A DNA stretch of 64,000 nt from a virus (Duplodnaviria; Caudoviricetes): positions 1-64,000 of the IMG/VR virus record IMGVR_UViG_3300044518_000037; one strand, written 5' to 3'. The translations under genes and the position numbers were made by a program. The notes under the pieces are model-generated. The model saw nothing but the letters and a program-made list of their open reading frames with translations, had not been told where the DNA came from and did not search any database. Shown one piece after another: positions 1,237 to 56,211 of this stretch (within the stretch, counting starts at the first letter, position 1; each line of letters starts with the position of its first letter).

Positions 1237-1527
1237 TGCGCGAGCGACCCCGGCGCTCTGACTCGCTCCGAAGTGATCGTCTCGCGCCGAATGTGAACCG
1301 GCCGTCCGATCGCACGATGCAGATGGACCAGGGCGAGCCCGAGCCGACCGAACCGCTGGCGGACATTTTTGCGCCAGATTTCAAGTACGACCCGGCGCAG
1401 CAACCTACTCCGGATGACTACCTCAGCCCGACCGATCCGCTGGCGCAGCGCAACTGAATCAAACCGAACCAGGGGAGTCGCGCACCGCGTGGCTCCCCTT
1501 TCGCATGCCCGAAAAGGAGAGCAACAC

Positions 1528-1851
1528 ATGATGCTGAAGATCGAGTTCTCGCCGGCCGCCCACCCGTTCAACCCGCTCAAGGAGCCGGTGACGAACGTCC
1601 ACGAGATCGAGCTGAACGCCTCGATCGGGATGCTGATCAACGCCATCGCGTACAAGATCAACGACCCCGCCGAGAGGCAGGAGTGGGCGCAGACCTACGA
1701 GCAGGTCACCCACCTGTTCTCCGTGGGCGCGCGGAAGAAGCTGCTGACGCAGGACAGCGTGGACGCGAAGTTCTCGCTGTTGGGGGACACCGACCTGGTC
1801 ATGACCATCTCGCGCATGGAGCCGCTGGTCCGGAACGAGGACGGGCGCTAG
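1528..1851 (+). CDS. Hypothetical protein
   Basis: RBS AAGGAG at about 1514, ATG at 1528. Confidence 0.75.
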   Translation: MMLKIEFSPAAHPFNPLKEPVTNVHEIELNASIGMLINAIAYKINDPAERQEWAQTYEQVTHLFSVGARKKLLTQDSVDAKFSLLGDTDLVMTISRMEPLVRNEDGR

Positions 1852-1972: not shown

Positions 1973-2362
1973 ATGTACCTCATGGTGACCGAGGAGTTCC
2001 GAGGTCGGAAGGACGGCAAGCCTGGCACGGTGACGCTTAGGCGGAGCCGCACCCGCACCAACGACATCGAGCAGATCACAAAGGACCTGGTCCAGATCAT
2101 GCGCGATGCCGACGACCGGTTCTCCGGCATGGAGGACTTCGGGGAAGCGCACGGCTTCTGGCACCCGGATCACAAGTGTCGGCTCCAGATCGGTGAAGAG
2201 CGCTCGGATGAGTGCAAGGAGCTGGAGCTGGAGTCGTGCGCTGAGTGGATTCGAAAGAGGCTCGGCGAACTCCGGTGTGGGGAGACGGAGGACTTCCACC
2301 TCGGCCGCCCTGGAACCGAGACCTCGTATCACGTGACCGTCCAGGAGACCGGCGACCGCTGA
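1973..2362 (+). CDS. Hypothetical protein
   Basis: RBS GGAGG, ATG at 1973. Confidence 0.75.
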   Translation: MYLMVTEEFRGRKDGKPGTVTLRRSRTRTNDIEQITKDLVQIMRDADDRFSGMEDFGEAHGFWHPDHKCRLQIGEERSDECKELELESCAEWIRKRLGELRCGETEDFHLGRPGTETSYHVTVQETGDR

Positions 2363-2450
2363 CGCGTGACGAGAGCGCGCGGGGACTGCACCACAACCCG
2401 CGCGCTGTCACCACCTGCCAGCCACCAATTCAGCTAGGAGGGGATTTCGC

Positions 2451-2843
2451 ATGAAGCGACGCGTGGGGCCGGGCGACAAGGTCTGGATTCGGATGCCGTA
2501 CTCCGAGGTCAACATGCACATGGGTGTCGCGGGGCACCGGCTGGAGGTCGAGGTCAAGGAGGGCGGCGCGCAGCTGTTGAAGGACGGCCGTCAGTTCTCT
2601 TCCCCGATTCTTCACAGCGAGGCGGGGATCTTCCAGGACGAGCGGGGCCTGTACCTGCCCGACCGGAAGCTGACCTGCGACGAGATTTTCGAGCTGAGCG
2701 AGTCGTGCGACGGGCTGTTCGTGATCACCGACCCGGCGCGGCACATGGGCAATACGCCCTCGCTGTCGGAGGTGCAGGAGCACGTGCGCGAGTGCGAGTT
2801 CTGCACGGAGGTCAACAACGACGTTCTGGGCTGGGTGGCCTGA
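2451..2843 (+). CDS. Hypothetical protein, SH3-like N-terminus and C-terminal CxxC
   Basis: RBS AGGAGG; VGPGDKVWIR; CEFC. Confidence 0.75.
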   Translation: MKRRVGPGDKVWIRMPYSEVNMHMGVAGHRLEVEVKEGGAQLLKDGRQFSSPILHSEAGIFQDERGLYLPDRKLTCDEIFELSESCDGLFVITDPARHMGNTPSLSEVQEHVRECEFCTEVNNDVLGWVA

Positions 2844-2845
2844 TC

Positions 2846-3154
2846 ATGGCGAACGGGACGTTCGACAAGCGCGACCCGGCGACGGAAGGGCACTTCATCG
2901 TGACCCCGATCGGCTCGGACGGGAAGGAGTACTGGGAATCCAGGATGTGCCCGGATTGGGTGGTCGAGGGCCGCGAGTACTTCGCGAAGTGGTGCGCGCA
3001 GGAGCAGTTGAAGTGCCGCTATGGCGAGGTGGAGATCATCACCTGCGTGGTGACCGAGTACGCGGACGCCACGTTCGAAAAGATCGTGAATACCGCGCTC
3101 TATACCGCCGCGTACTTCGAACGGTTCCCGATGGCCCGACCGGAGAGGTACTGA
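2846..3154 (+). CDS. Hypothetical protein
   Basis: ATG 2 nt after the upstream stop; coding-like codon bias. Confidence 0.7.
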   Translation: MANGTFDKRDPATEGHFIVTPIGSDGKEYWESRMCPDWVVEGREYFAKWCAQEQLKCRYGEVEIITCVVTEYADATFEKIVNTALYTAAYFERFPMARPERY

Positions 3155-3155
3155 C

Positions 3156-3575
3156 GTGGGCTGGGTCATGCACGAGTCGGGCGTCATGGACGACGACGGC
3201 CAGCACGGGGATGAGCAGCACGGTCCGGCCTGTTCGGTGAGGTACGTCAACCCGGATCTCCCGGGCGCGGTGGTCACGGTCTACGCCTACGCCCACGCGC
3301 CGGAGCGGCAGAACACGGTGCGCGAGGACGGCATGGAGTACGCCGAGTATGGGCCCGACCTGGATTCCCTCGGCGTGGAGTCGCTGATCGAGTACGCGAC
3401 CGGGTGGGACCTGAGCGACCCGGACAGTCAGCCGGAGTGGACGAAGCCGGTCTACGACGGGCTCGACACCTGGCCGCTCAACGGGGACGTGGACAAGGCG
3501 ACGACGGTGGCCCGCGTCTGGATTAGCTCGCTGGACCCGGAGCGGGACCTTCACTGGAACGGAGAGCAGTTCTGA
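3156..3575 (+). CDS. Hypothetical acidic protein
   Basis: Coupled to both neighbours; codon bias. Confidence 0.7.
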   Translation: MGWVMHESGVMDDDGQHGDEQHGPACSVRYVNPDLPGAVVTVYAYAHAPERQNTVREDGMEYAEYGPDLDSLGVESLIEYATGWDLSDPDSQPEWTKPVYDGLDTWPLNGDVDKATTVARVWISSLDPERDLHWNGEQF

Positions 3576-3976
3576 TGAGCAACGAGAAATGTGAGCCGGC
3601 CGAGGCGGACTGGTACGTCGAGCTGATCTACGGCAAGACCTTCTGCCCGGAGACCGAGGCCGGCGGGGTGTGCACCGACCGGTACGACTCGCACGATCGG
3701 CAGTACGGCACCGAGACCAGCTATAACCACGGCTACTTCAAGGGTGACCGGCGGAACGAGGTCGAGGTGGCTGCACTGCTGCCCGAGGGCTGGTACGAGA
3801 TCGAGCGCTCGATCAAGCGGTGCCCGGAGATCGGCGACGAGACCGAGTGCGTGCACTGCGACATGGGGATGGTCTTCACGAACGAGCACCCGCGCTGGCA
3901 GAACGCGGCGAGCGGGGGCGACTGCCCGATCAACGGTCTTGACGGGCACGAGCCGGTGGACGAGTTCAACGCGTAA
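3575..3976 (+). CDS. Hypothetical Cys/His-rich protein
   Basis: TGATG overlap; CxHC and further Cys/His residues. Confidence 0.75.
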   Translation: MSNEKCEPAEADWYVELIYGKTFCPETEAGGVCTDRYDSHDRQYGTETSYNHGYFKGDRRNEVEVAALLPEGWYEIERSIKRCPEIGDETECVHCDMGMVFTNEHPRWQNAASGGDCPINGLDGHEPVDEFNA

Positions 3977-3982
3977 CAGGAA

Positions 3983-4056
3983 GCCCGGCAAATTCGGAAC
4001 GCGACATGGGGACACCCATGCCTGCGGGCGGGTTCGAATCCCGCGCCGGGTGCGCA
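3983..4056 (+). ncRNA. tRNA-like element A (acceptor stem + T arm, no canonical D or anticodon arm)
   Basis: GCCCGGC(3983-89)/GCCGGGT(4045-51) 7-bp stem; T arm GCGGG-TTCGAAT-CCCGC (4028-44); internal hairpin CATGGG-GACA-CCCATG; 3' GCGCA. Confidence 0.7.
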
Positions 4057-4078
4057 GTAGTCGACAGAAAGGGGAAGT

Positions 4079-4540
4079 ATGTTCCCGCTGATTCAGGTAC
4101 GCCGGGTCAACTGGCGTGACTCGCGATACGAGTTCGGGGACGGCACCGCAACAGCGCTCGAAGCTGGTGAACTGGACGCGTACGACGTCGTGCTGGTGGA
4201 CCAGGACGGCGAGGAGCTGGCCAAGTCCGACTGGCCACAGGCCGACCTTCCCGGTCTGGCCAAGACCTACCCCAGCCCGTTCTTGATCCCGCGCAAGGCG
4301 GGACAGCTGCGCGATCTGGCGGCCGACATGTGGACCGGCCAGGCCGCTGAGGTCGGCAGTCGGTTCGTGCCGATCAAGGGCTGCAAGTACGAGGGCCAGG
4401 TCGTCACCGTGCAGGAGATCGAGCACGACGATCGCGGCACCGATGGCTCGTGGATGACGGGCCACGTCCTGGTGTCCCCGGAGAGCGGGAAGGTAGTGCG
4501 ACTCCGGCTCGACCAGCTTCGACCGGCGGATGGCGAGTAG
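4079..4540 (+). CDS. Hypothetical protein
   Basis: RBS AAGGGG; codon bias. Confidence 0.75.
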   Translation: MFPLIQVRRVNWRDSRYEFGDGTATALEAGELDAYDVVLVDQDGEELAKSDWPQADLPGLAKTYPSPFLIPRKAGQLRDLAADMWTGQAAEVGSRFVPIKGCKYEGQVVTVQEIEHDDRGTDGSWMTGHVLVSPESGKVVRLRLDQLRPADGE

Positions 4541-4584
4541 CTAAAGCGGTGCGAAAGCTTGCGCCAGAATTCAAGGAGGGGAAA

Positions 4585-5118
4585 ATGACGGAGATCATTC
4601 CGCCGAGGTGCTCGACGCTCTCGGGCGATCCGTGGGACCCGTGCGAGCGGGCCGCCACGCACATGCTGGTCTACAGCCAGTTGGAGAACGAGAAACGGCA
4701 GGAGTATGCCGAGGCGGTGTGCAAGCCGTGCGGTGAGGGCTACCTGCGCCGGCCGGCGCTCAAGGCGCGGCTCGTTCCGCTCGGACCCGAGACGTACGCG
4801 CAGCGGGAGATCGTCGGAGGCGTTCCGCTGCCGGACGGATCGAAGGTGGTTCTCGGATTCCACGAGGGATTCACTGACCCCTACGTGGTGGCCAGGATCG
4901 GCGGAGCGTTCACTGGCAACGGCAAGTACCTCGGGACGCATGAGCGCGCCCTGGCGCTTCTGGTCGAGGAGCTGGCACAGGTGGTGGGCCTGGTCATCCA
5001 GGCGCCCAAGGTCGCGGAGCCGAAGGGCAAGCCCTTCACCCCGCCGACCTACGCGGAGGTCCAGGAATTCGTGGACCTCGCGACCGGCGGCGGCAACTTC
5101 GTGGGTGAGGAGAACTGA
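4585..5118 (+). CDS. Hypothetical protein with Cys/His zinc-finger-like N-terminus
   Basis: RBS AAGGAGG, ATG at 4585; C..C..H..CKPC. Confidence 0.75.
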   Translation: MTEIIPPRCSTLSGDPWDPCERAATHMLVYSQLENEKRQEYAEAVCKPCGEGYLRRPALKARLVPLGPETYAQREIVGGVPLPDGSKVVLGFHEGFTDPYVVARIGGAFTGNGKYLGTHERALALLVEELAQVVGLVIQAPKVAEPKGKPFTPPTYAEVQEFVDLATGGGNFVGEEN

Positions 5119-5585
5119 TGGCCAGGTACATCGGATACCCGGAGCCGTCGGAGTGGCAGGGCCATCTGCTCAAGCGACTCACCAAACTCGACGCCCGTGA
5201 GGCTGAGTTCAAGTGCCAGCGGTGCGGCATCACCGGGAGCCTGAGTTCACTGCGCGGCCGGATCGTAGTCGACGCCGACTGCGTGGCGAACCCCACCGCG
5301 ATCAAGCTGTGGATCAGCGTGGCCGACTTCCCGCCGCCGGCCAACGACGAGTTCTGCCACACCGGTCCGCAGCGCGAGGAGGCGCGAGCGCGGGTGCTGG
5401 AGGCAGCTGGCCGGATTTGGTACCGGACGCTGGAGAAGCAGCACGCCATGCCGATCGAGGGATGGGTGGCGGTGGACTCGGCGCGGTCGATGGAGGTCGC
5501 GCAGTTCATGAACTTCGAGCAGCGTTACAGGGTGCTGCTGAACGGGGCCAGCGGGAAGGTCGCGATCGAGAAGTTCGACAACTGA
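5118..5585 (+). CDS. Hypothetical protein
   Basis: TGATG overlap; CQRC. Confidence 0.75.
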   Translation: MARYIGYPEPSEWQGHLLKRLTKLDAREAEFKCQRCGITGSLSSLRGRIVVDADCVANPTAIKLWISVADFPPPANDEFCHTGPQREEARARVLEAAGRIWYRTLEKQHAMPIEGWVAVDSARSMEVAQFMNFEQRYRVLLNGASGKVAIEKFDN

Positions 5586-5655
5586 CCGAGGCCGAAAAGG
5601 GCGCCCTGAGTGGGCGCCTTTCGCGTACGTGGGTGCGCCTGACGATGGCCGTCAG
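5582..5655 (+). ncRNA. Type II hammerhead ribozyme (predicted cleavage after C5622)
   Basis: GAA(5594-96)-A; 10-bp stem III; UUC triplet; 6-bp stem I; CUGACGA core (5639-45); one extra U; stem II GGCC/GGCC plus GTCAG/CTGAC. Confidence 0.8.
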
Positions 5656-5675
5656 TGAGTAGGGAGGGACGCAAC

Positions 5676-6284
5676 TTGACCTTGATCAACCCGTTTACCG
5701 AGGAACAATCCAAGCTGTTCATGGCAGTGCTCCTTGTGCTCGACTCCAGCGCGGAGCCGACCCGGCACGACGAGATCGTCAGGCGCACCGGCACCGGGGG
5801 CAAGCAGCGCCGCCTGGCCGTCTACGACGCCATGTGGGGGTGGCAGAAGCGAGGCGTCATCCAGCTCGCCGAACCGATCCCCGGCGATGCGTACGTGAAC
5901 TCGAACCCGCTCTGGCGGATCAGCCCGGTGGGTGAGATGCGCGCCGACGCCTACCGGCGTGAGCTGGCCGAGCGGGTCCGGGAGAACGAGGTGTGGTGGG
6001 ACACCCGGAGCACGTGGTCCCCGACGGAGGAGGTGAACCCCGAGTTCCGGGACAACCCGAAGCAGATCGCCTTCCACTACCACAGCACGGGGTGGTTCTC
6101 GACCTGGACGCCGGTTGAGCGACTGCTCACGGTGTACAGCGCGGGCGGCCAAGTGCTCGACCTCTATGGGTGGTCGCGCAAGGACAACCCGCTCCTCTAC
6201 GACGCGACGCAGGCGGCTGCTCTGTTTGGACCGCTGTCCGCACTCATCTACCAGAACCGGATCTACCCCAGCCAGGAGAACTGA
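5676..6284 (+). CDS. Hypothetical protein with winged-helix-like N-terminus
   Basis: RBS GGGAGG with TTG start; helix pattern DEIVRRTG..AVYDAMWGWQKRGVI. Confidence 0.7.
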   Translation: MTLINPFTEEQSKLFMAVLLVLDSSAEPTRHDEIVRRTGTGGKQRRLAVYDAMWGWQKRGVIQLAEPIPGDAYVNSNPLWRISPVGEMRADAYRRELAERVRENEVWWDTRSTWSPTEEVNPEFRDNPKQIAFHYHSTGWFSTWTPVERLLTVYSAGGQVLDLYGWSRKDNPLLYDATQAAALFGPLSALIYQNRIYPSQEN

Positions 6285-6285
6285 C

Positions 6286-6549
6286 GTGAAGGCGATGAAG
6301 AGTAGCGAGGCGGTTCAGCTCGCCGGCGAGTCCGGATTGATCTGGCTGGGCGGCCGGGCGACGTCCGGCCGGAAGCCGAAGAAGGTTTCGCGGTTGGTCA
6401 AGGTGGAGCTGTTGCCGCGCGGTGCCATCTCGTGGCGCGACGAGAACGGCGTCCTGGTTGACCAGACGCGTACAAGCTCGCCGGTCTTCGTGGAGAAGTA
6501 CGAGCCGGAGATTCCGCAGTCCAACACCAGTGTGAAGGAAGGGAACTGA
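6286..6549 (+). CDS. Hypothetical protein
   Basis: GTG directly after the upstream stop; RBS AGGAG. Confidence 0.65.
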   Translation: MKAMKSSEAVQLAGESGLIWLGGRATSGRKPKKVSRLVKVELLPRGAISWRDENGVLVDQTRTSSPVFVEKYEPEIPQSNTSVKEGN

Positions 6550-6992
6550 TGGACGACATGATGCTCGCGGTCGTGTGCAAGGTGACGTGGCGCCCGAGGC
6601 TTGGCAACGTCGAACTCGGCGCCCCCCAGGTCGAGGAGATGCAGCTCATGGTCGACCGGCACGCTTACGAGAACAACGACGACCCGTACACGAATACGTT
6701 CTACGACCTGTGGGCCGAGGCGACGATGACCATCGCCGGGCGACACGACACGAACCGGAACTTCTTCCAGATCATCCGGATCGAGCCGGTCTGCTCGTGC
6801 CTCGGACCGTGCCGATTCCCGGAGCGGGAGCGGTTCTGGATGAAGGCCGACGGCGTTGCCTTCTGGGAAGCCGGCCTATTCGACCGCGAGGAGGACCCCC
6901 AGGGCTTGCAGCCTCAGGCGTTCGCCTGCGGCACGCCGGGTGACATGGCACTCGTGCTCGCGGCCAAGCGCCGCCGCCACCACCACCAGTAG
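6549..6992 (+). CDS. Hypothetical protein
   Basis: TGATG overlap; RBS AAGGAAGGG. Confidence 0.75.
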   Translation: MDDMMLAVVCKVTWRPRLGNVELGAPQVEEMQLMVDRHAYENNDDPYTNTFYDLWAEATMTIAGRHDTNRNFFQIIRIEPVCSCLGPCRFPERERFWMKADGVAFWEAGLFDREEDPQGLQPQAFACGTPGDMALVLAAKRRRHHHQ

Positions 6993-7004
6993 GGGGGAAG
7001 TGCT

Positions 7005-7700
7005 GTGCAGCGCCGGCAGATCGAGTGGGAGGACGCGTGGATGCACGCGGACCTCCACTACTGGGACGAGACGGACGTTCGCGAGGGCGGCAACACCGCC
7101 GAGGTACGCGACCTCGCGCTGAGGCTCCTCAACCTGTACGAGTCGGAGATCTACGACCAGGACGAGGAGAAGCTCTTCAAGGCGATCGAGTACGCGGGTG
7201 AACGTTGGCCGGAGGGCTTCACCCCCGGGCAACTCGACACCCTGCACAACGTGCCGGTGTCGGACGATCCCGAACTGTGGCTGGGCTCCGAGGCGTGGAC
7301 GGAAGCGTATGAGACCGCCGAAGCCCACGACTGGCGGCCGTTCGAAGCCCTCCTGGACGGGGGATGCCAGGCGGCCATGGTGGCCAACCTGTACACCCAC
7401 TCGAAGATCGACAGGGACGCCGCCAGGCTGGGAGCCGCGCTGTGGGCACTTGGTGAGGTCGAGAACAACTGGACGATCTCCAGGCTGACCAAGGTGGTTG
7501 AGTCCTACCAAGGTCAGACTGGCACCGACGTAGACGAGCTGGTGGACCAGCACATCGAGGAGAACTGGCCGGGCTTCCCCGTCGAATTCGTCAGCAACAA
7601 GGAGCACTTCTTCGACACGCACGTCCTCGGGGAGAACGAGGTGTGCATCGAAGGGCCCGTGCCCGGAGCCTTCTACTACTTCGACAAGAACCGCTGGTAG
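7005..7700 (+). CDS. Highly acidic protein, possible ArdA-like DNA-mimic antirestriction protein
   Basis: Very D/E-rich; C-terminal ESYQG..DELVD..E..P..F..FF..YYF pattern resembles the ArdA C-terminal domain. Confidence 0.45.
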   Translation: MQRRQIEWEDAWMHADLHYWDETDVREGGNTAEVRDLALRLLNLYESEIYDQDEEKLFKAIEYAGERWPEGFTPGQLDTLHNVPVSDDPELWLGSEAWTEAYETAEAHDWRPFEALLDGGCQAAMVANLYTHSKIDRDAARLGAALWALGEVENNWTISRLTKVVESYQGQTGTDVDELVDQHIEENWPGFPVEFVSNKEHFFDTHVLGENEVCIEGPVPGAFYYFDKNRW

Positions 7701-7708
7701 GAGGGGCA

Positions 7709-7756
7709 GCCCCGTCAGGCGGAGGCAGCCGGTTCGAATCCGGCGCGGGGCGCGCA
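7709..7756 (+). ncRNA. tRNA-like element B (minimal acceptor + T-arm minihelix)
   Basis: GCCCCGT(7709-15)/GCGGGGC(7745-51); 12-nt linker; GCCGG-TTCGAAT-CCGGC (7728-44); 3' GCGCA. Confidence 0.7.
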
Positions 7757-7774
7757 GGGACTGCACCACAACAC

Positions 7775-7806
7775 GGCTCGCCCAAATCCGGGCGGGCCTT
7801 TCGTAT
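7775..7806 (+). terminator. GC hairpin with TTTCGT tail
   Basis: GGCTCGCCC-AAATCC-GGGCGGGCC-TTTCGT. Confidence 0.55.
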
Positions 7807-7820
7807 TTCAGGAGGGGAAC

Positions 7821-25386: not shown

Positions 25387-25397
25387 ACCCACAACCC

Positions 25398-25427
25398 GAG
25401 CCCCCGCTTCGGCGGGGGCTTTCGTCA
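25398..25427 (+). terminator. CCCCGC/GCGGGG family hairpin (UUCG loop)
   Basis: AGCCCCCGC-TTCG-GCGGGGGCT-TTCGTCA. Confidence 0.7.
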
Positions 25428-25484
25428 TTTCAGGGCTCGGCCTACGCCGGGCCCTTCGTCATGCTCGCATTCAAGGAGGTCGCC

Positions 25485-31349: not shown

Positions 31350-31429
31350 TCAGCGCCCCGAACAGCGCGGAATGAGCGCGCGGGCAACTGCCCGCACGCT
31401 TCTCCGATCGTCTCGCTGGCGCGATGGGC

Positions 31430-32656
31430 TTAGGTCGCGGGCGTGGTGCCGGCCAGGGCCGCGCTCGCGGGGCTGGCGCCCTGGGAGTTGCCGCAGATCA
31501 CGGTGAACGAGTAGGGCTGGTTCACCGTGTACTGGAGGGTGACCTGCGGCGCGGCCCCGAGCACCCCGGTGAGGTAGGCGACACGCCTGGTGCCGTCGTA
31601 GACCGCATACCACTCCGGTGCCCCGTTGCTGGCGGAGACTGTCGGCGCCGTGATGTTCAAGTGCACGAGGCCGGCGGCGACCGTGCCGTTGAGTGCGGGT
31701 GCGGGCGGCGCTGCTGGCGCGTTGAGGGCGGCCGGGATGGTTGCGTAGACGGGCGGCGAGAAGGCCGAGTACGCGGTGCCGTTGGCGTCCGTCTTGACGG
31801 CCCGCACGCGCAGCCGCACCGGCACGCGCGGAACCGTGTAGTTCGGGGTGGTAGCCGTCACGGGGGTGCCGGCGGGGGGCTGGGCGACGGAGGCGATGAC
31901 GCGGGTGTCGCCCAGGTAGAAGCCGGGGTTGTTCGGGTCGGGCTTGAGGGTGGTGCCGACAGTGTTGTTGTCCCAAACCTCGTAGCTGGTGGCGTCGGGG
32001 ACGCGGTTCCAGCCGAGCTGGATCGCCCCGCCGGCGTTCGAGGTGATCACAGGCAGCGGGGCGGCCAGGGCGACGTTGCCGGGCGTCTTCGGGTTGGTGG
32101 TGACCTGCTGGCTGGTGGTGCTTGTGGCCGGGGTGGTGACCGAGAGAGCGGTCGACCTGTTGCCGCTGGCGACCTGGTTGGTGTCGCACGGCTCGACCAC
32201 GATGGTGTAGGCGGTGTTCGGGACGATAGGGGTCCATACGGCCGGCGTGGCGCTTGACCAGTAGCCAGTGAGGACGTGGTTCAGCTTCGGGCCCCGAATG
32301 GTGAGGGAGGGGCTGGTGGCGCCGTTGATGTACAGGTTGTGCGCTCCGACGCCCATGCTGTCCAGCCCCTTGGAGCCCTTGTTGCCGGTGGTCGCCGGGA
32401 TCTGGCCGATGTTCGAGTGCCAGAACAGCTGGATGCTGGTGGGAGTCAGCGAACCGCCCGGGATGAGTGTTCCGGTGGCGTTGGTGTACCACTGCGGCGT
32501 CGGCGGCACGAACTTCTGGCCATAGCCGGCGGGGCGGTTGGCGATGCGCTGCGCGGGAGTGAGCGGCGGCGAGGTGGTCAGACCCGACGCCGAGCCGGGC
32601 TCACCCGTCAGATCGGTGTTGGTCTCAAGGTTCCACTCGTTAACGGGAGTTGACAT
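31430..32656 (-). CDS. Fibronectin type III/Ig-like repeat protein (possible virion decoration)
   Basis: TSIQLFW..YTIVVEP; IQLGW..SYEVW..LRVRAV; YSFTV..GAS; T/P-rich. Confidence 0.65.
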   Translation of the reverse strand: MSTPVNEWNLETNTDLTGEPGSASGLTTSPPLTPAQRIANRPAGYGQKFVPPTPQWYTNATGTLIPGGSLTPTSIQLFWHSNIGQIPATTGNKGSKGLDSMGVGAHNLYINGATSPSLTIRGPKLNHVLTGYWSSATPAVWTPIVPNTAYTIVVEPCDTNQVASGNRSTALSVTTPATSTTSQQVTTNPKTPGNVALAAPLPVITSNAGGAIQLGWNRVPDATSYEVWDNNTVGTTLKPDPNNPGFYLGDTRVIASVAQPPAGTPVTATTPNYTVPRVPVRLRVRAVKTDANGTAYSAFSPPVYATIPAALNAPAAPPAPALNGTVAAGLVHLNITAPTVSASNGAPEWYAVYDGTRRVAYLTGVLGAAPQVTLQYTVNQPYSFTVICGNSQGASPASAALAGTTPAT

Positions 32657-54442: not shown

Positions 54443-56211
54443 GGTCGAATCCTCTCCAGGAAGCCCATTCCATTGGCGGAGTTGTTCGTCGTGTTGCCGC
54501 TGATTGTGGCGAGCTGTACCCACCCCGGGATGAGGGGCGTCAGGGTTTCCACGGTGATCTGGGAGGAGTTGACTCTGACGCGCATTCGGGTGCCGTCAGT
54601 GATTGGTTGCCACGTTGCGAGCACAATGAGGTTGGCCCCGCTCAGCGCTCCGGTCGGTTGGCCGTTGGCGTCGTAGGTGAGTTGGGCGTAGGTGAGGCGG
54701 TCTCGGGATGCGAGGAAGTACTGCCCGTTGCCGTATCGGAACGCTATTCCGTGTTCCATGGTGAATGGGCCGCCGGATACGCCGCTGGTATCGACAGGTC
54801 GGCTCCTGAAAGTGGTGTAGATGATGTCGGCATTCACGCCGGAGTACACCCAGTCTCGCTTGAAGAAAAGCGCTCGGCCGGCTTGCATAATTGACTGGTT
54901 GGTAGCGGTGGAGGTGCCGGATGCCTTTGTCCACGACAGCGGGGCGCCCATGCCGTTGTTCGAGTTCCACAGCCCCCAGTCGCATTCCCATGGAATGCCG
55001 GTGCCCTGCTGCCAGGGCTGCGGTGTGGTCCAGCCGGTTGGTGCGGCGCCGGAGCTCGCGGGGTAGGCGAGATTATCGACCTCGAACCGGTCAAGCAGCA
55101 GCTGGCGGCTGTCGCGCACCACGGCGTTGCTGATGTAGGCGCCGTTCTGGTCGAACCAGTCGATCTCGGCTCGCACGTTCTGCCCGGCGCCGGTGGCGGT
55201 GCGGTAGTGGTAGACGGAGAAGGTGTAGAGCTCGATGTCCGGGCCGAGCCACCTCCACCATGGATTGTCGGTGTCGTAGCCGGTGGGGGCGTTGACTCGT
55301 GTCGCCTGGGCCGCCTGGTAGAGATGTCCGTTCCAGGACACGACGTCGCGGAAGTTGTAGCTCGTGTACGGGTACCAGACCGGGATTGTGCCGAGTGGAA
55401 TGGTCTGGTTCTGGACGACCGACGGCTCGTACGTCAAGTTGTTGGCTAGGGACGTGATCTTCCACTTGGTCGGTGACGTCGCCGGGTAGTCGCCCTGGGT
55501 GTAGTTCAGGGCGGTGTAGATCGCCTTCTGCTCGCCGGTGTAGTAGCCGAGAGCGGCCGGTTGGCCTGCCCGGTACGTCTGGGCGATCGCGGCGCCGGGG
55601 CCCTGGTTCCAGTAGCCCGCCTGGACGCCGCCGCCGGTGTACAGCGCGACGGAGTTGGATCCGGTTGCGCTGGAGGGGAGGGCGTAGGTGGAGGAGTTCC
55701 CGGCGCCGGGGCTGGACGAGCCGCCGACGGTGGCGCCGAAGGGGATGGTGCCCCACTGCATTGCGGTTGCCGAGGCTCGGCTGTTGTCGGGTCGGGCGTT
55801 GATGACGCCAGCGGGGTCCTTCAGGTTCCAGTACGCCTGGCCGTCGGTCAGCCAGTTTCGGATCGTGTCCACGTCGCTGATCGTGCCGGGGGAGAGCGCC
55901 GTCCAGAATTTCGTGGACGTGCCCGGGGTGACGCCGAGGTTGAGGCCGTCGTTCGGAACTACCGAGACGTGCGCCCACTTGACGTCGTATCCGGTCGATA
56001 CGGCGTTCTTGCCGACTACGGTCAGGGTGAGCTGGTTGCTGCCGGCGACCACCCCGGGCGGCAACGCGATGACCGGACTGAGTTGCTGGATGGGTGAGTA
56101 GAGGTCGATCGTGAAGTTCGGTACGGCCGAGCCATTGAGGCCCATCGACACGATGCCGCAGTTCGGGCCGGTGTAGAACTGGCAATACAGCTGTGCGGAC
56201 CATGCACTCAT
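54439..56211 (-). CDS. Tail fibre/receptor-binding protein with ChtBD3/CBM5-12-like repeats
   Basis: WYPYTSYNFRDVVSWNGHLYQA..WWRW; RBS GGAG. Confidence 0.7.
   Translation of the reverse strand: MSAWSAQLYCQFYTGPNCGIVSMGLNGSAVPNFTIDLYSPIQQLSPVIALPPGVVAGSNQLTLTVVGKNAVSTGYDVKWAHVSVVPNDGLNLGVTPGTSTKFWTALSPGTISDVDTIRNWLTDGQAYWNLKDPAGVINARPDNSRASATAMQWGTIPFGATVGGSSSPGAGNSSTYALPSSATGSNSVALYTGGGVQAGYWNQGPGAAIAQTYRAGQPAALGYYTGEQKAIYTALNYTQGDYPATSPTKWKITSLANNLTYEPSVVQNQTIPLGTIPVWYPYTSYNFRDVVSWNGHLYQAAQATRVNAPTGYDTDNPWWRWLGPDIELYTFSVYHYRTATGAGQNVRAEIDWFDQNGAYISNAVVRDSRQLLLDRFEVDNLAYPASSGAAPTGWTTPQPWQQGTGIPWECDWGLWNSNNGMGAPLSWTKASGTSTATNQSIMQAGRALFFKRDWVYSGVNADIIYTTFRSRPVDTSGVSGGPFTMEHGIAFRYGNGQYFLASRDRLTYAQLTYDANGQPTGALSGANLIVLATWQPITDGTRMRVRVNSSQITVETLTPLIPGWVQLATISGNTTNNSANGMGFLERIRP

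Follow-up and report, generated by a model that had tools for sequence, protein, structure and literature searches.

The DNA analysed here (the window) covers the initial 64 kb of a contig of 75.8 kb from an uncultured virus (IMG/VR record IMGVR_UViG_3300044518_000037; 66% G+C, estimated by CheckV to be ~77% complete). Near its start, at positions 1973-7700 of the plus strand, open reading frames (ORFs) and the G+C content of third codon positions (GC3) delineate a co-directional run of 14 small orphan genes, most of which abut or overlap their neighbours. Only five gaps longer than 40 nt were found, and three of them are occupied by structured elements, all on the coding strand: a tRNA-like element (A, 3983-4056), a putative hammerhead ribozyme (5582-5655) and a putative tRNA top-half minihelix (B, 7709-7756). 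Each of the three begins 0-8 nt past a stop codon and ends ahead of the next Shine-Dalgarno sequence. The original prediction, made from the sequence of the window, had placed three structured RNAs at these positions, on the coding strand and between stop codon and ribosome-binding site (RBS), and this was borne out. It also proposed that the elements segment a polycistronic early RNA, an interpretation that is partly supported by the results described below.

The run is probably one transcription unit. Terminator-like hairpins bound it, near 1903-1935 on one side and at 7775-7798 on the other. Downstream of the first lies an A+T-richer stretch followed by an RBS, so that the first gene probably starts at 1973 instead of 1883 and a new transcription unit may begin there; the other corrected gene starts are 2846, 4585 and 5676. 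No Pfam or PHROGs family was found for any of the 10 proteins of the run that were scanned. Three of the proteins flanking the elements have no relative among viral contigs, and the protein encoded upstream of the hammerhead matched nothing except itself among 5.8 billion proteins. Since ARAGORN called no tRNA gene and Rfam, at gathering scores, returned nothing in the window, all three elements are missed by routine annotation.

The element at 5582-5655 (plus strand) was recognized as a type II hammerhead ribozyme, carrying an additional U after A9, on the basis of its fold, a strict descriptor and its homologues. Its minimum-energy fold is a three-way junction (-39.2 kcal/mol, z = -4.35; none of 200 shuffled sequences was as stable), and the complete hammerhead core, CUGACGA at 5639-5645 and GAA at 5594-5596, lies where the three helices meet. 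Pair A15.1-U16.1 corresponds to A5597-U5621 and position 17 to C5622, in keeping with the requirement for a base other than G at the cleavage site; cleavage is predicted between 5622 and 5623. Helices I (6 bp, 5623-5638) and III (10 bp, 5597-5621) are capped by loops and helix II (4 bp with a 5-bp extension) is open, as expected of the type II topology. The stop codon of the upstream gene (UGA, 5583-5585) is embedded in the outer helix, on the 5' strand of the extended stem II. Two alternative partners are available to the 3' tail (5651-5655): pairing with 5582-5586 lengthens stem II, and pairing with the five leading bases of the core masks the core. When 5570-5680 was folded, the active form (-40.3 kcal/mol) was favoured over the masked form (-36.7 kcal/mol) by 3.6 kcal/mol.

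Three observations speak against this assignment. The score obtained with the Rfam type II model (RF02276) is 14.5 bits, below the cut-off of 37 (E = 1 in a 121-nt search); chance matches to the same model in related genomes reach the same level of ~14.5 bits; and the pseudoknot between loop I and the 3' tail, which is typical of most type II hammerheads (PMC3088659), was not found, inspection of the 3' tail and of the 5' flank revealing nothing complementary to the 4-nt loop I. Since chance matches score alike, the Rfam score alone decides nothing about the element. The model aligns it end to end, and the score is lowered by the extra U, by the lack of the tail consensus and by the lengths of helix I (short) and helix III (long). 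As for the pseudoknot, the extended stem II with its 3-nt bulge may take its place. Weak Rfam hammerhead matches in the relatives (12-16 bits) were inspected as well and rejected, core or helices being missing.

The strict descriptor (full type II core plus three perfect helices) had 5582-5655 as its single match in the 75.8-kb record and no match in 300 random genomes equal to the record in size and dinucleotide composition. In 1.8 Mb of DNA from other phages it had one more high-scoring match, in which the extra U is likewise present. Viral contigs were then scanned with a pattern, and filtering of the matches with the descriptor produced a subfamily of 14 sequences (5582-5655 and 13 further members from phages) sharing the same unusual architecture, including traits that the search did not demand: CUGAC on the upstream side, GUCAG as the 3' tail, a short bulge and the sequence of stem II. 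Helices I and III stay paired while varying among the members, with 3-4 Watson-Crick pair types at most positions. In one member (L356) core position N7 has changed along with both the upstream strand and the tail, a concerted change suggesting that both pairings of the tail, the stem II extension and the core masking, matter. The UGA of the outer helix is the in-frame stop codon of a long ORF in six of eight subfamily members, that of this phage included. As far as sequence analysis can tell, the hammerhead is genuine, as originally claimed: it belongs to a phage subfamily with covarying helices and adds one member to an established class, in a type of setting that is likewise established. 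Some subfamily members are found in tandem (two copies 314 nt apart in L284, three in L272) and flank single small genes, a layout that matches that of the prophage hammerheads of Perreault (2011).

Elements A and B were identified by motif, fold and covariance model. Element A (3983-4056, plus strand; body to 4051, trailer to 4056) starts 6 nt past the TAA at 3974-3976 and comprises an acceptor-like stem of 7 bp, a linker of 38 nt, a T arm (5-bp stem, loop UUCGAAU) and the trailer GCGCA; its linker contains a 6-bp hairpin with a 4-nt loop and no anticodon loop. Element B (7709-7756, plus strand; body to 7751, trailer to 7756) starts 8 nt past the TAG at 7698-7700 and is made up of a 7-bp acceptor stem, a 12-nt linker and a T arm, with T loop and GCGCA trailer as in A. 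A T-arm motif of the GGTTCRANYCC type is exact in both (4031-4041 in A, 7731-7741 in B). They are not canonical tRNAs: there is no D arm and no 7-nt anticodon loop, and the Rfam tRNA model has no match in the whole record. No ARAGORN or Rfam match indicated a tmRNA or Y-RNA-like domain either, and an attP-like integration site was ruled out by the presence of both acceptor-stem strands, by the existence of several copies and by the covarying pairing described below.

Helicase similarity places the phage with Streptomyces-type phages of ~105-115 kb; identity is 41% with the cultured phages BRock, GiJojo, LuckySocke and pSt2308 and 38-78% with 80 uncultured relatives. The complete genome G001 (109,317 bp) is colinear with this phage; identity is 35-50% at the amino-acid level over replication and structural genes, and the small-gene arm of G001 has diverged nearly beyond recognition. 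A minihelix descriptor, which demanded a T loop on a 5-bp stem and an acceptor stem stacking on this T stem, found only A and B on the coding strand of the record, 13 minihelices in a 14-kb arm of G001 and 16 in a 9.5-kb arm of the Gordonia phage VanLee. A covariance model (R1), built from 15 unambiguous copies and searched over 730 kb, gave 39 matches, 37 of them on the coding strand of small-gene arms; the G001 total is ~16, and the model detected no minihelix in BRock, G005, G009 or G004. With R1, element A scores 27.4 bits over its 3' part (Rfam tRNA-Sec: 17.8 bits) and element B 55.3 bits, but B is itself a seed of the model.

Across the 39 matches, 92-93% of cells are paired, and compensatory changes (on both sides) are seen in 10 of the 12 pairs. 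None of 500 shuffles reached the observed values, and shifting the partner by one column halved the pairing. Two points count against taking these figures at face value: seeds and matches were chosen for pairing, which inflates the percentage paired, and in most members of the family the two bases of acceptor-stem pair 7:66 do not pair. That selection does not affect how varied the pair types are, the strand bias or where the minihelices lie. The discriminator (A or G) is always followed by C and then usually by G, a trailer (C-G) shared with the real CCA-less tRNAs in L050 and BRock, so the 3' boundary of the minihelix resembles that of a tRNA gene.

Individual copies can be followed between genomes. 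Element A has a syntenic counterpart in G007, a minihelix at 55,899-55,949 lying between homologues of genes 3156-3575 and 4585-5118, and has its linker motif and GCGCA trailer in common with the copy at 106,192 in G001. A near-identical copy of B is present at 1775-1819 (minus strand) of L037, a phage whose helicase is only 50% identical to that of this phage and in which the flanking genes are unrelated to the neighbours of B. The scan of related phages that had been suggested as a check, for the same elements between non-homologous genes, was thus positive for B (in L037) and for the family as a whole. Judged by sequence and pairing, A and B belong to a conserved family of tRNA top-half minihelices with compensatory changes, which is what the original prediction had taken them to be.

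The relationship to real tRNAs calls for consideration of another explanation, namely that the minihelices are eroded tRNA genes, or mobile DNA modules at cassette boundaries, with no RNA function in this phage. BRock, GiJojo and pSt2308 (L142-L159; 52-53% G+C) carry ~29 real tRNAs scattered among the small genes of the equivalent arm, whereas there are none in the uncultured relatives of 62-68% G+C (this phage, G001, G005, G007 and G009). This distribution fits a loss of decoding tRNAs in which the top halves were kept or not, and the persistence of B, nearly unchanged between unrelated genes in a phage as distant as L037, fits horizontal movement. Decay, however, would not cleanly drop the D and anticodon arms and yet keep compensatory pairing in 10 of 12 pairs, would not hold copies to the coding strand, and would not put one copy per gap across a 30-gene arm such as that of VanLee. 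We therefore consider remnants devoid of function very improbable; an origin of the minihelices from tRNA genes is in itself compatible with a role in cutting RNA.

VanLee (NC_073474.1; L134/L135) is a cultured phage with no protein detectably shared with the phage studied here. In its 72.1-81.5 kb region (minus strand; 30 annotated genes), there are 16 consecutive gaps of 70 nt or more, and every one contains a single minihelix. No copy overlaps a coding sequence (CDS) or is annotated in the deposited record, and downstream of every copy come a small hairpin, a conserved C/A-rich string and an RBS. ARAGORN calls one of the copies a 91-nt tRNA-Val. A tRNA-like gene of 88 nt was also noticed, unannotated, between gp13 and gp14 of phiC31 (NC_001978.3, ~31,424-31,511; L119:551-638); ARAGORN reads it as tRNA-Gly(ccc), and a C/A-rich string and an RBS follow it.

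The strongest argument for reading the elements as cutting marks lies in the other occupants of this kind of gap, which can also be filled by ribozymes. On the plus strand of G001, at 91,845-92,476 (L129:11845-12476), three Pistol ribozymes (62-70 bits; cut-off 34.5) occupy three successive gaps between small ORFs, and the gaps after them hold the ~16 minihelices. The mixture of ribozyme and tRNA mimics within one co-directional run, on which the original prediction had been built, is therefore found a second time. That ribozymes and minihelices are found in the same slot favours RNA cutting as their shared function, given that (i) a ribozyme has one known activity, (ii) a tRNA within a longer transcript is necessarily excised and (iii) the minihelix retains the parts that RNase P and RNase Z recognise. 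We consider it fairly probable, from the sequence features presented here, that the gene run carries hammerhead and minihelix cutting marks that split a multi-gene RNA.

The importance of the minihelices might instead reside in the small RNA released and not in the cut. Excised and CCA-completed, they would be decoys or sponges that engage host factors recognizing the top half of a tRNA, for instance defence nucleases that target tRNAs, toxins that modify the acceptor end, or enzymes of modification or charging, and the hammerhead would be unrelated to them. The T loop, acceptor positions 1-4 and C74 are conserved far beyond what a plain cleavage signal might need, some phages have a high copy number (16 in VanLee, ~16 in G001), and the linkers often contain GG, possibly mimicking the contact of the D loop with the T loop, all of which agrees with such a role. 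A decoy gene, however, needs no particular placement, while here there is one element per gap, always between stop codon and RBS; in addition, ribozymes that give no tRNA-like product fill the same slot, and close relatives do without any minihelix. That the released RNA, and not the cut, is what matters appears unlikely to us, although decoy action and cutting are not mutually exclusive.

A further explanation is that the structures are passive and remain uncut: the 12-bp hairpin formed by acceptor and T arm would, like the hammerhead's helix III, be a barrier to 3' exonucleases or make transcription pause or terminate, and segments of the transcript would differ in stability as a result. Helix III, a 10-bp G+C stem flanked by an A tract and a U tract, does look like an intrinsic terminator, B is succeeded by another terminator-like hairpin, and plain hairpins lie in other gaps of the run. 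Yet a barrier requires neither an invariant T loop nor a full hammerhead core at the exact junction positions. The lack of descriptor matches in the random genomes, the preservation of the core in 13 homologues despite varying helices and the presence in the same slot of G001 of Pistols, which are not simple hairpins, also argue against passive structures, which we hold to be an improbable account of the three elements.

From the elements themselves, their family membership, conservation, strand and placement, we infer the cleavage events, the enzymes involved and the effect on stability as follows. The run (~1973-7700) would be transcribed as a multi-gene RNA bearing two kinds of built-in cutting mark. 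The hammerhead would cut itself after C5622, leaving an upstream product terminated by the closed 10-bp helix III and a cyclic phosphate, and a downstream product that would start with a 5'-OH and the closed helix I; owing to the type II topology, each cleavage product would be protected by a terminal hairpin. A terminating ribosome on the stop codon in the extended stem II would favour the inactive fold, with the tail on the core, so that cutting would wait for the departure of the ribosome. At the minihelices, the 5' ends (3983 and 7709) would most likely be cut by host RNase P, and cuts after the discriminator (~4052 and ~7752) would most likely be made by RNase Z or trimming enzymes. The cistrons on either side would thereby be parted from each other, and a small tRNA-like RNA would be set free. 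The 75.8-kb record, which is incomplete, yielded no CCA-adding enzyme, RtcB or RNase Z-type domain.

Several facts weigh against a general cutting system of this kind. Two minihelices and one ribozyme serve 14 genes, marking 3 of 13 gene boundaries. G005 and G009, the closest full-length relatives, are without any minihelix, so the marks must be dispensable. No counterpart of the hammerhead is present in 35 related phages, and Pistol ribozymes were seen in only one of the 35 (G001) and not in the window. A terminator scan placed a terminator-like hairpin 3' of B, which may therefore stand at the end of an operon or transcript rather than between co-transcribed genes. The run can be called 'early' only by inference from genome layout. 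Finally, two other assemblies of the same phage, a 102.9-kb JGI contig (L136) and a 1.9-kb Logan contig (L137), are 99.99-100% identical to the record and so provide neither local variation nor covariation to test. In the cultured BRock-type relatives, our own descriptor found no hammerhead or Pistol.

How do these elements compare with known systems? Hammerheads flanking prophage genes in polycistronic RNAs were described in 2011 and cleave in vitro and in Escherichia coli (PMC3088659). The core, the permuted topology and the intergenic setting in phage polycistronic RNA are shared between these type II hammerheads (RF02276) and 5582-5655; the latter differs in the extra U between A9 and stem II, in a second helix on stem II that contains the stop codon, in a tail able to pair with the core and in the absence of the pseudoknot. 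Pistol ribozymes (RF02679), which are a different class, are found in G001 in gaps of this kind, with strand and arm also the same. In plant mitochondria, t-elements are tRNA-like structures that direct cuts by RNase P and RNase Z, define mRNA ends and acquire a non-encoded C or CA (PMC1920247). They resemble A and B in being tRNA-like folds within mRNA precursors and in having a conserved T-arm motif; the phage elements, known here from sequence, are 43-69 nt long, usually have no D or anticodon arm and in some phages are present in every gap. The tRNA punctuation of animal mitochondria, and the tRNAs of the BRock-type phages, likewise rely on tRNA-shaped separators on the same strand, but the elements here are without an anticodon arm and cannot decode, so that the processing signal alone would remain. 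There is also a similarity to the early mRNA of T7, in which RNase III cuts between cistrons at structured sites and leaves hairpins at the ends; the enzyme is another one there and the signal consists of long imperfect duplexes, as opposed to a ribozyme and tRNA mimics.

In the literature searched, we found no paper on tRNA-like minihelices between phage genes or on their pairing with hammerheads. Within that search, the novelty claimed originally stands for the combination with tRNA mimics; it does not stand for the punctuation of operons by hammerheads, known since 2011 (PMC3088659). Punctuation by minihelices in phages is, as far as that search extended, unpublished, and represents a variant of a known principle (tRNA punctuation and t-elements). 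A broader generalization, which we offer tentatively, is that ribozymes (hammerhead and pistol) and tRNA top-half mimics may be interchangeable modules of one message-cutting strategy, the hammerhead subfamily described here possibly being gated by translation.

Bacteria and phages harbour thousands of hammerhead, pistol and related ribozymes, whose role is a long-standing puzzle. A gene-boundary slot common to ribozymes, minihelices and, in cultured relatives, real tRNAs points to segmentation of polycistronic RNA and, if this is true, these ribozymes would gain a defined job. VanLee is cultured and has minihelices in 16 consecutive gaps, which makes the idea directly testable. The minihelices and the hammerhead subfamily go unannotated in public phage genomes. 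Cassettes consisting of stop codon, cutter and RBS might also serve as insulators for synthetic operons in actinobacteria.

The remaining features concern the other gaps of the run and a repeated motif. A 24-nt motif had been proposed to link B to a fourth gap, the first one of the run. The repeat was confirmed, with 22 of 24 nt identical and a 16-mer exact at 2382-2397 and 7757-7772; we do not regard it as marking a fourth element of the same kind, and a short form of it also precedes a terminator-like hairpin at 25389. In gap 1 the motif lies in the 13-nt loop of a hairpin with a 10-bp G+C stem (2374-2406, plus strand; fold z = -2.26), after which come a C/A-rich leader and an RBS; a comparable G+C hairpin with a C/A-rich loop is present at 58,5xx in G007. 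The second copy is part of a module that follows B (7754-7808, plus strand), in which a small hairpin (7754-7764) and the motif (7757-7772) are succeeded by a 9-bp terminator-like hairpin (7775-7798) with a U-rich tail. A shorter version of the motif is found after a stop codon at window position 25389-25430, directly 5' of a terminator-like G+C hairpin with a U tract. Its layout is the same as that at 7766-7808 and is loosely like that of Rfam ftsZ-DE (RF02985). The module after B resembles ftsZ-DE weakly: 7754-7802 scores 16.6 bits against a cut-off of 72.2, and the agreement is limited to a short C/A-rich string and a terminator-like hairpin. Similar C/A-rich strings lie 5' of the RBS after minihelices in G007 and VanLee. 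The exact 16-mer had one match in viral contigs, in an AT-rich unrelated contig, which was treated as chance.

A small 7-bp hairpin at 4548-4565 (plus strand) lies in the 44-nt gap between genes 4079-4540 and 4585-5118; its folding energy is at chance level (z = -0.74). A RAGATH-31-like hairpin at 7028-7056, obtained with permissive Rfam E-values, is located inside a coding sequence and was likewise taken as chance. Strong terminator-like hairpins were noted at window positions 1466-1500 and 1903-1935. A look-up of the protein encoded at 1369-1851, aimed at the DNA upstream of the window, matched no record. The longer assembly L136 (JGI 3300045086; 102,919 bp) begins at window position 4971; being longer than the IMG/VR record, it indicates that the record is incomplete and that position 1 of the window is not a genome end. 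The genes called in L136 within the regions corresponding to 13.6-15 kb, 16.7-19.9 kb and 26.8-28.7 kb of the window include two that are convergent and encode Lsr2-family proteins.

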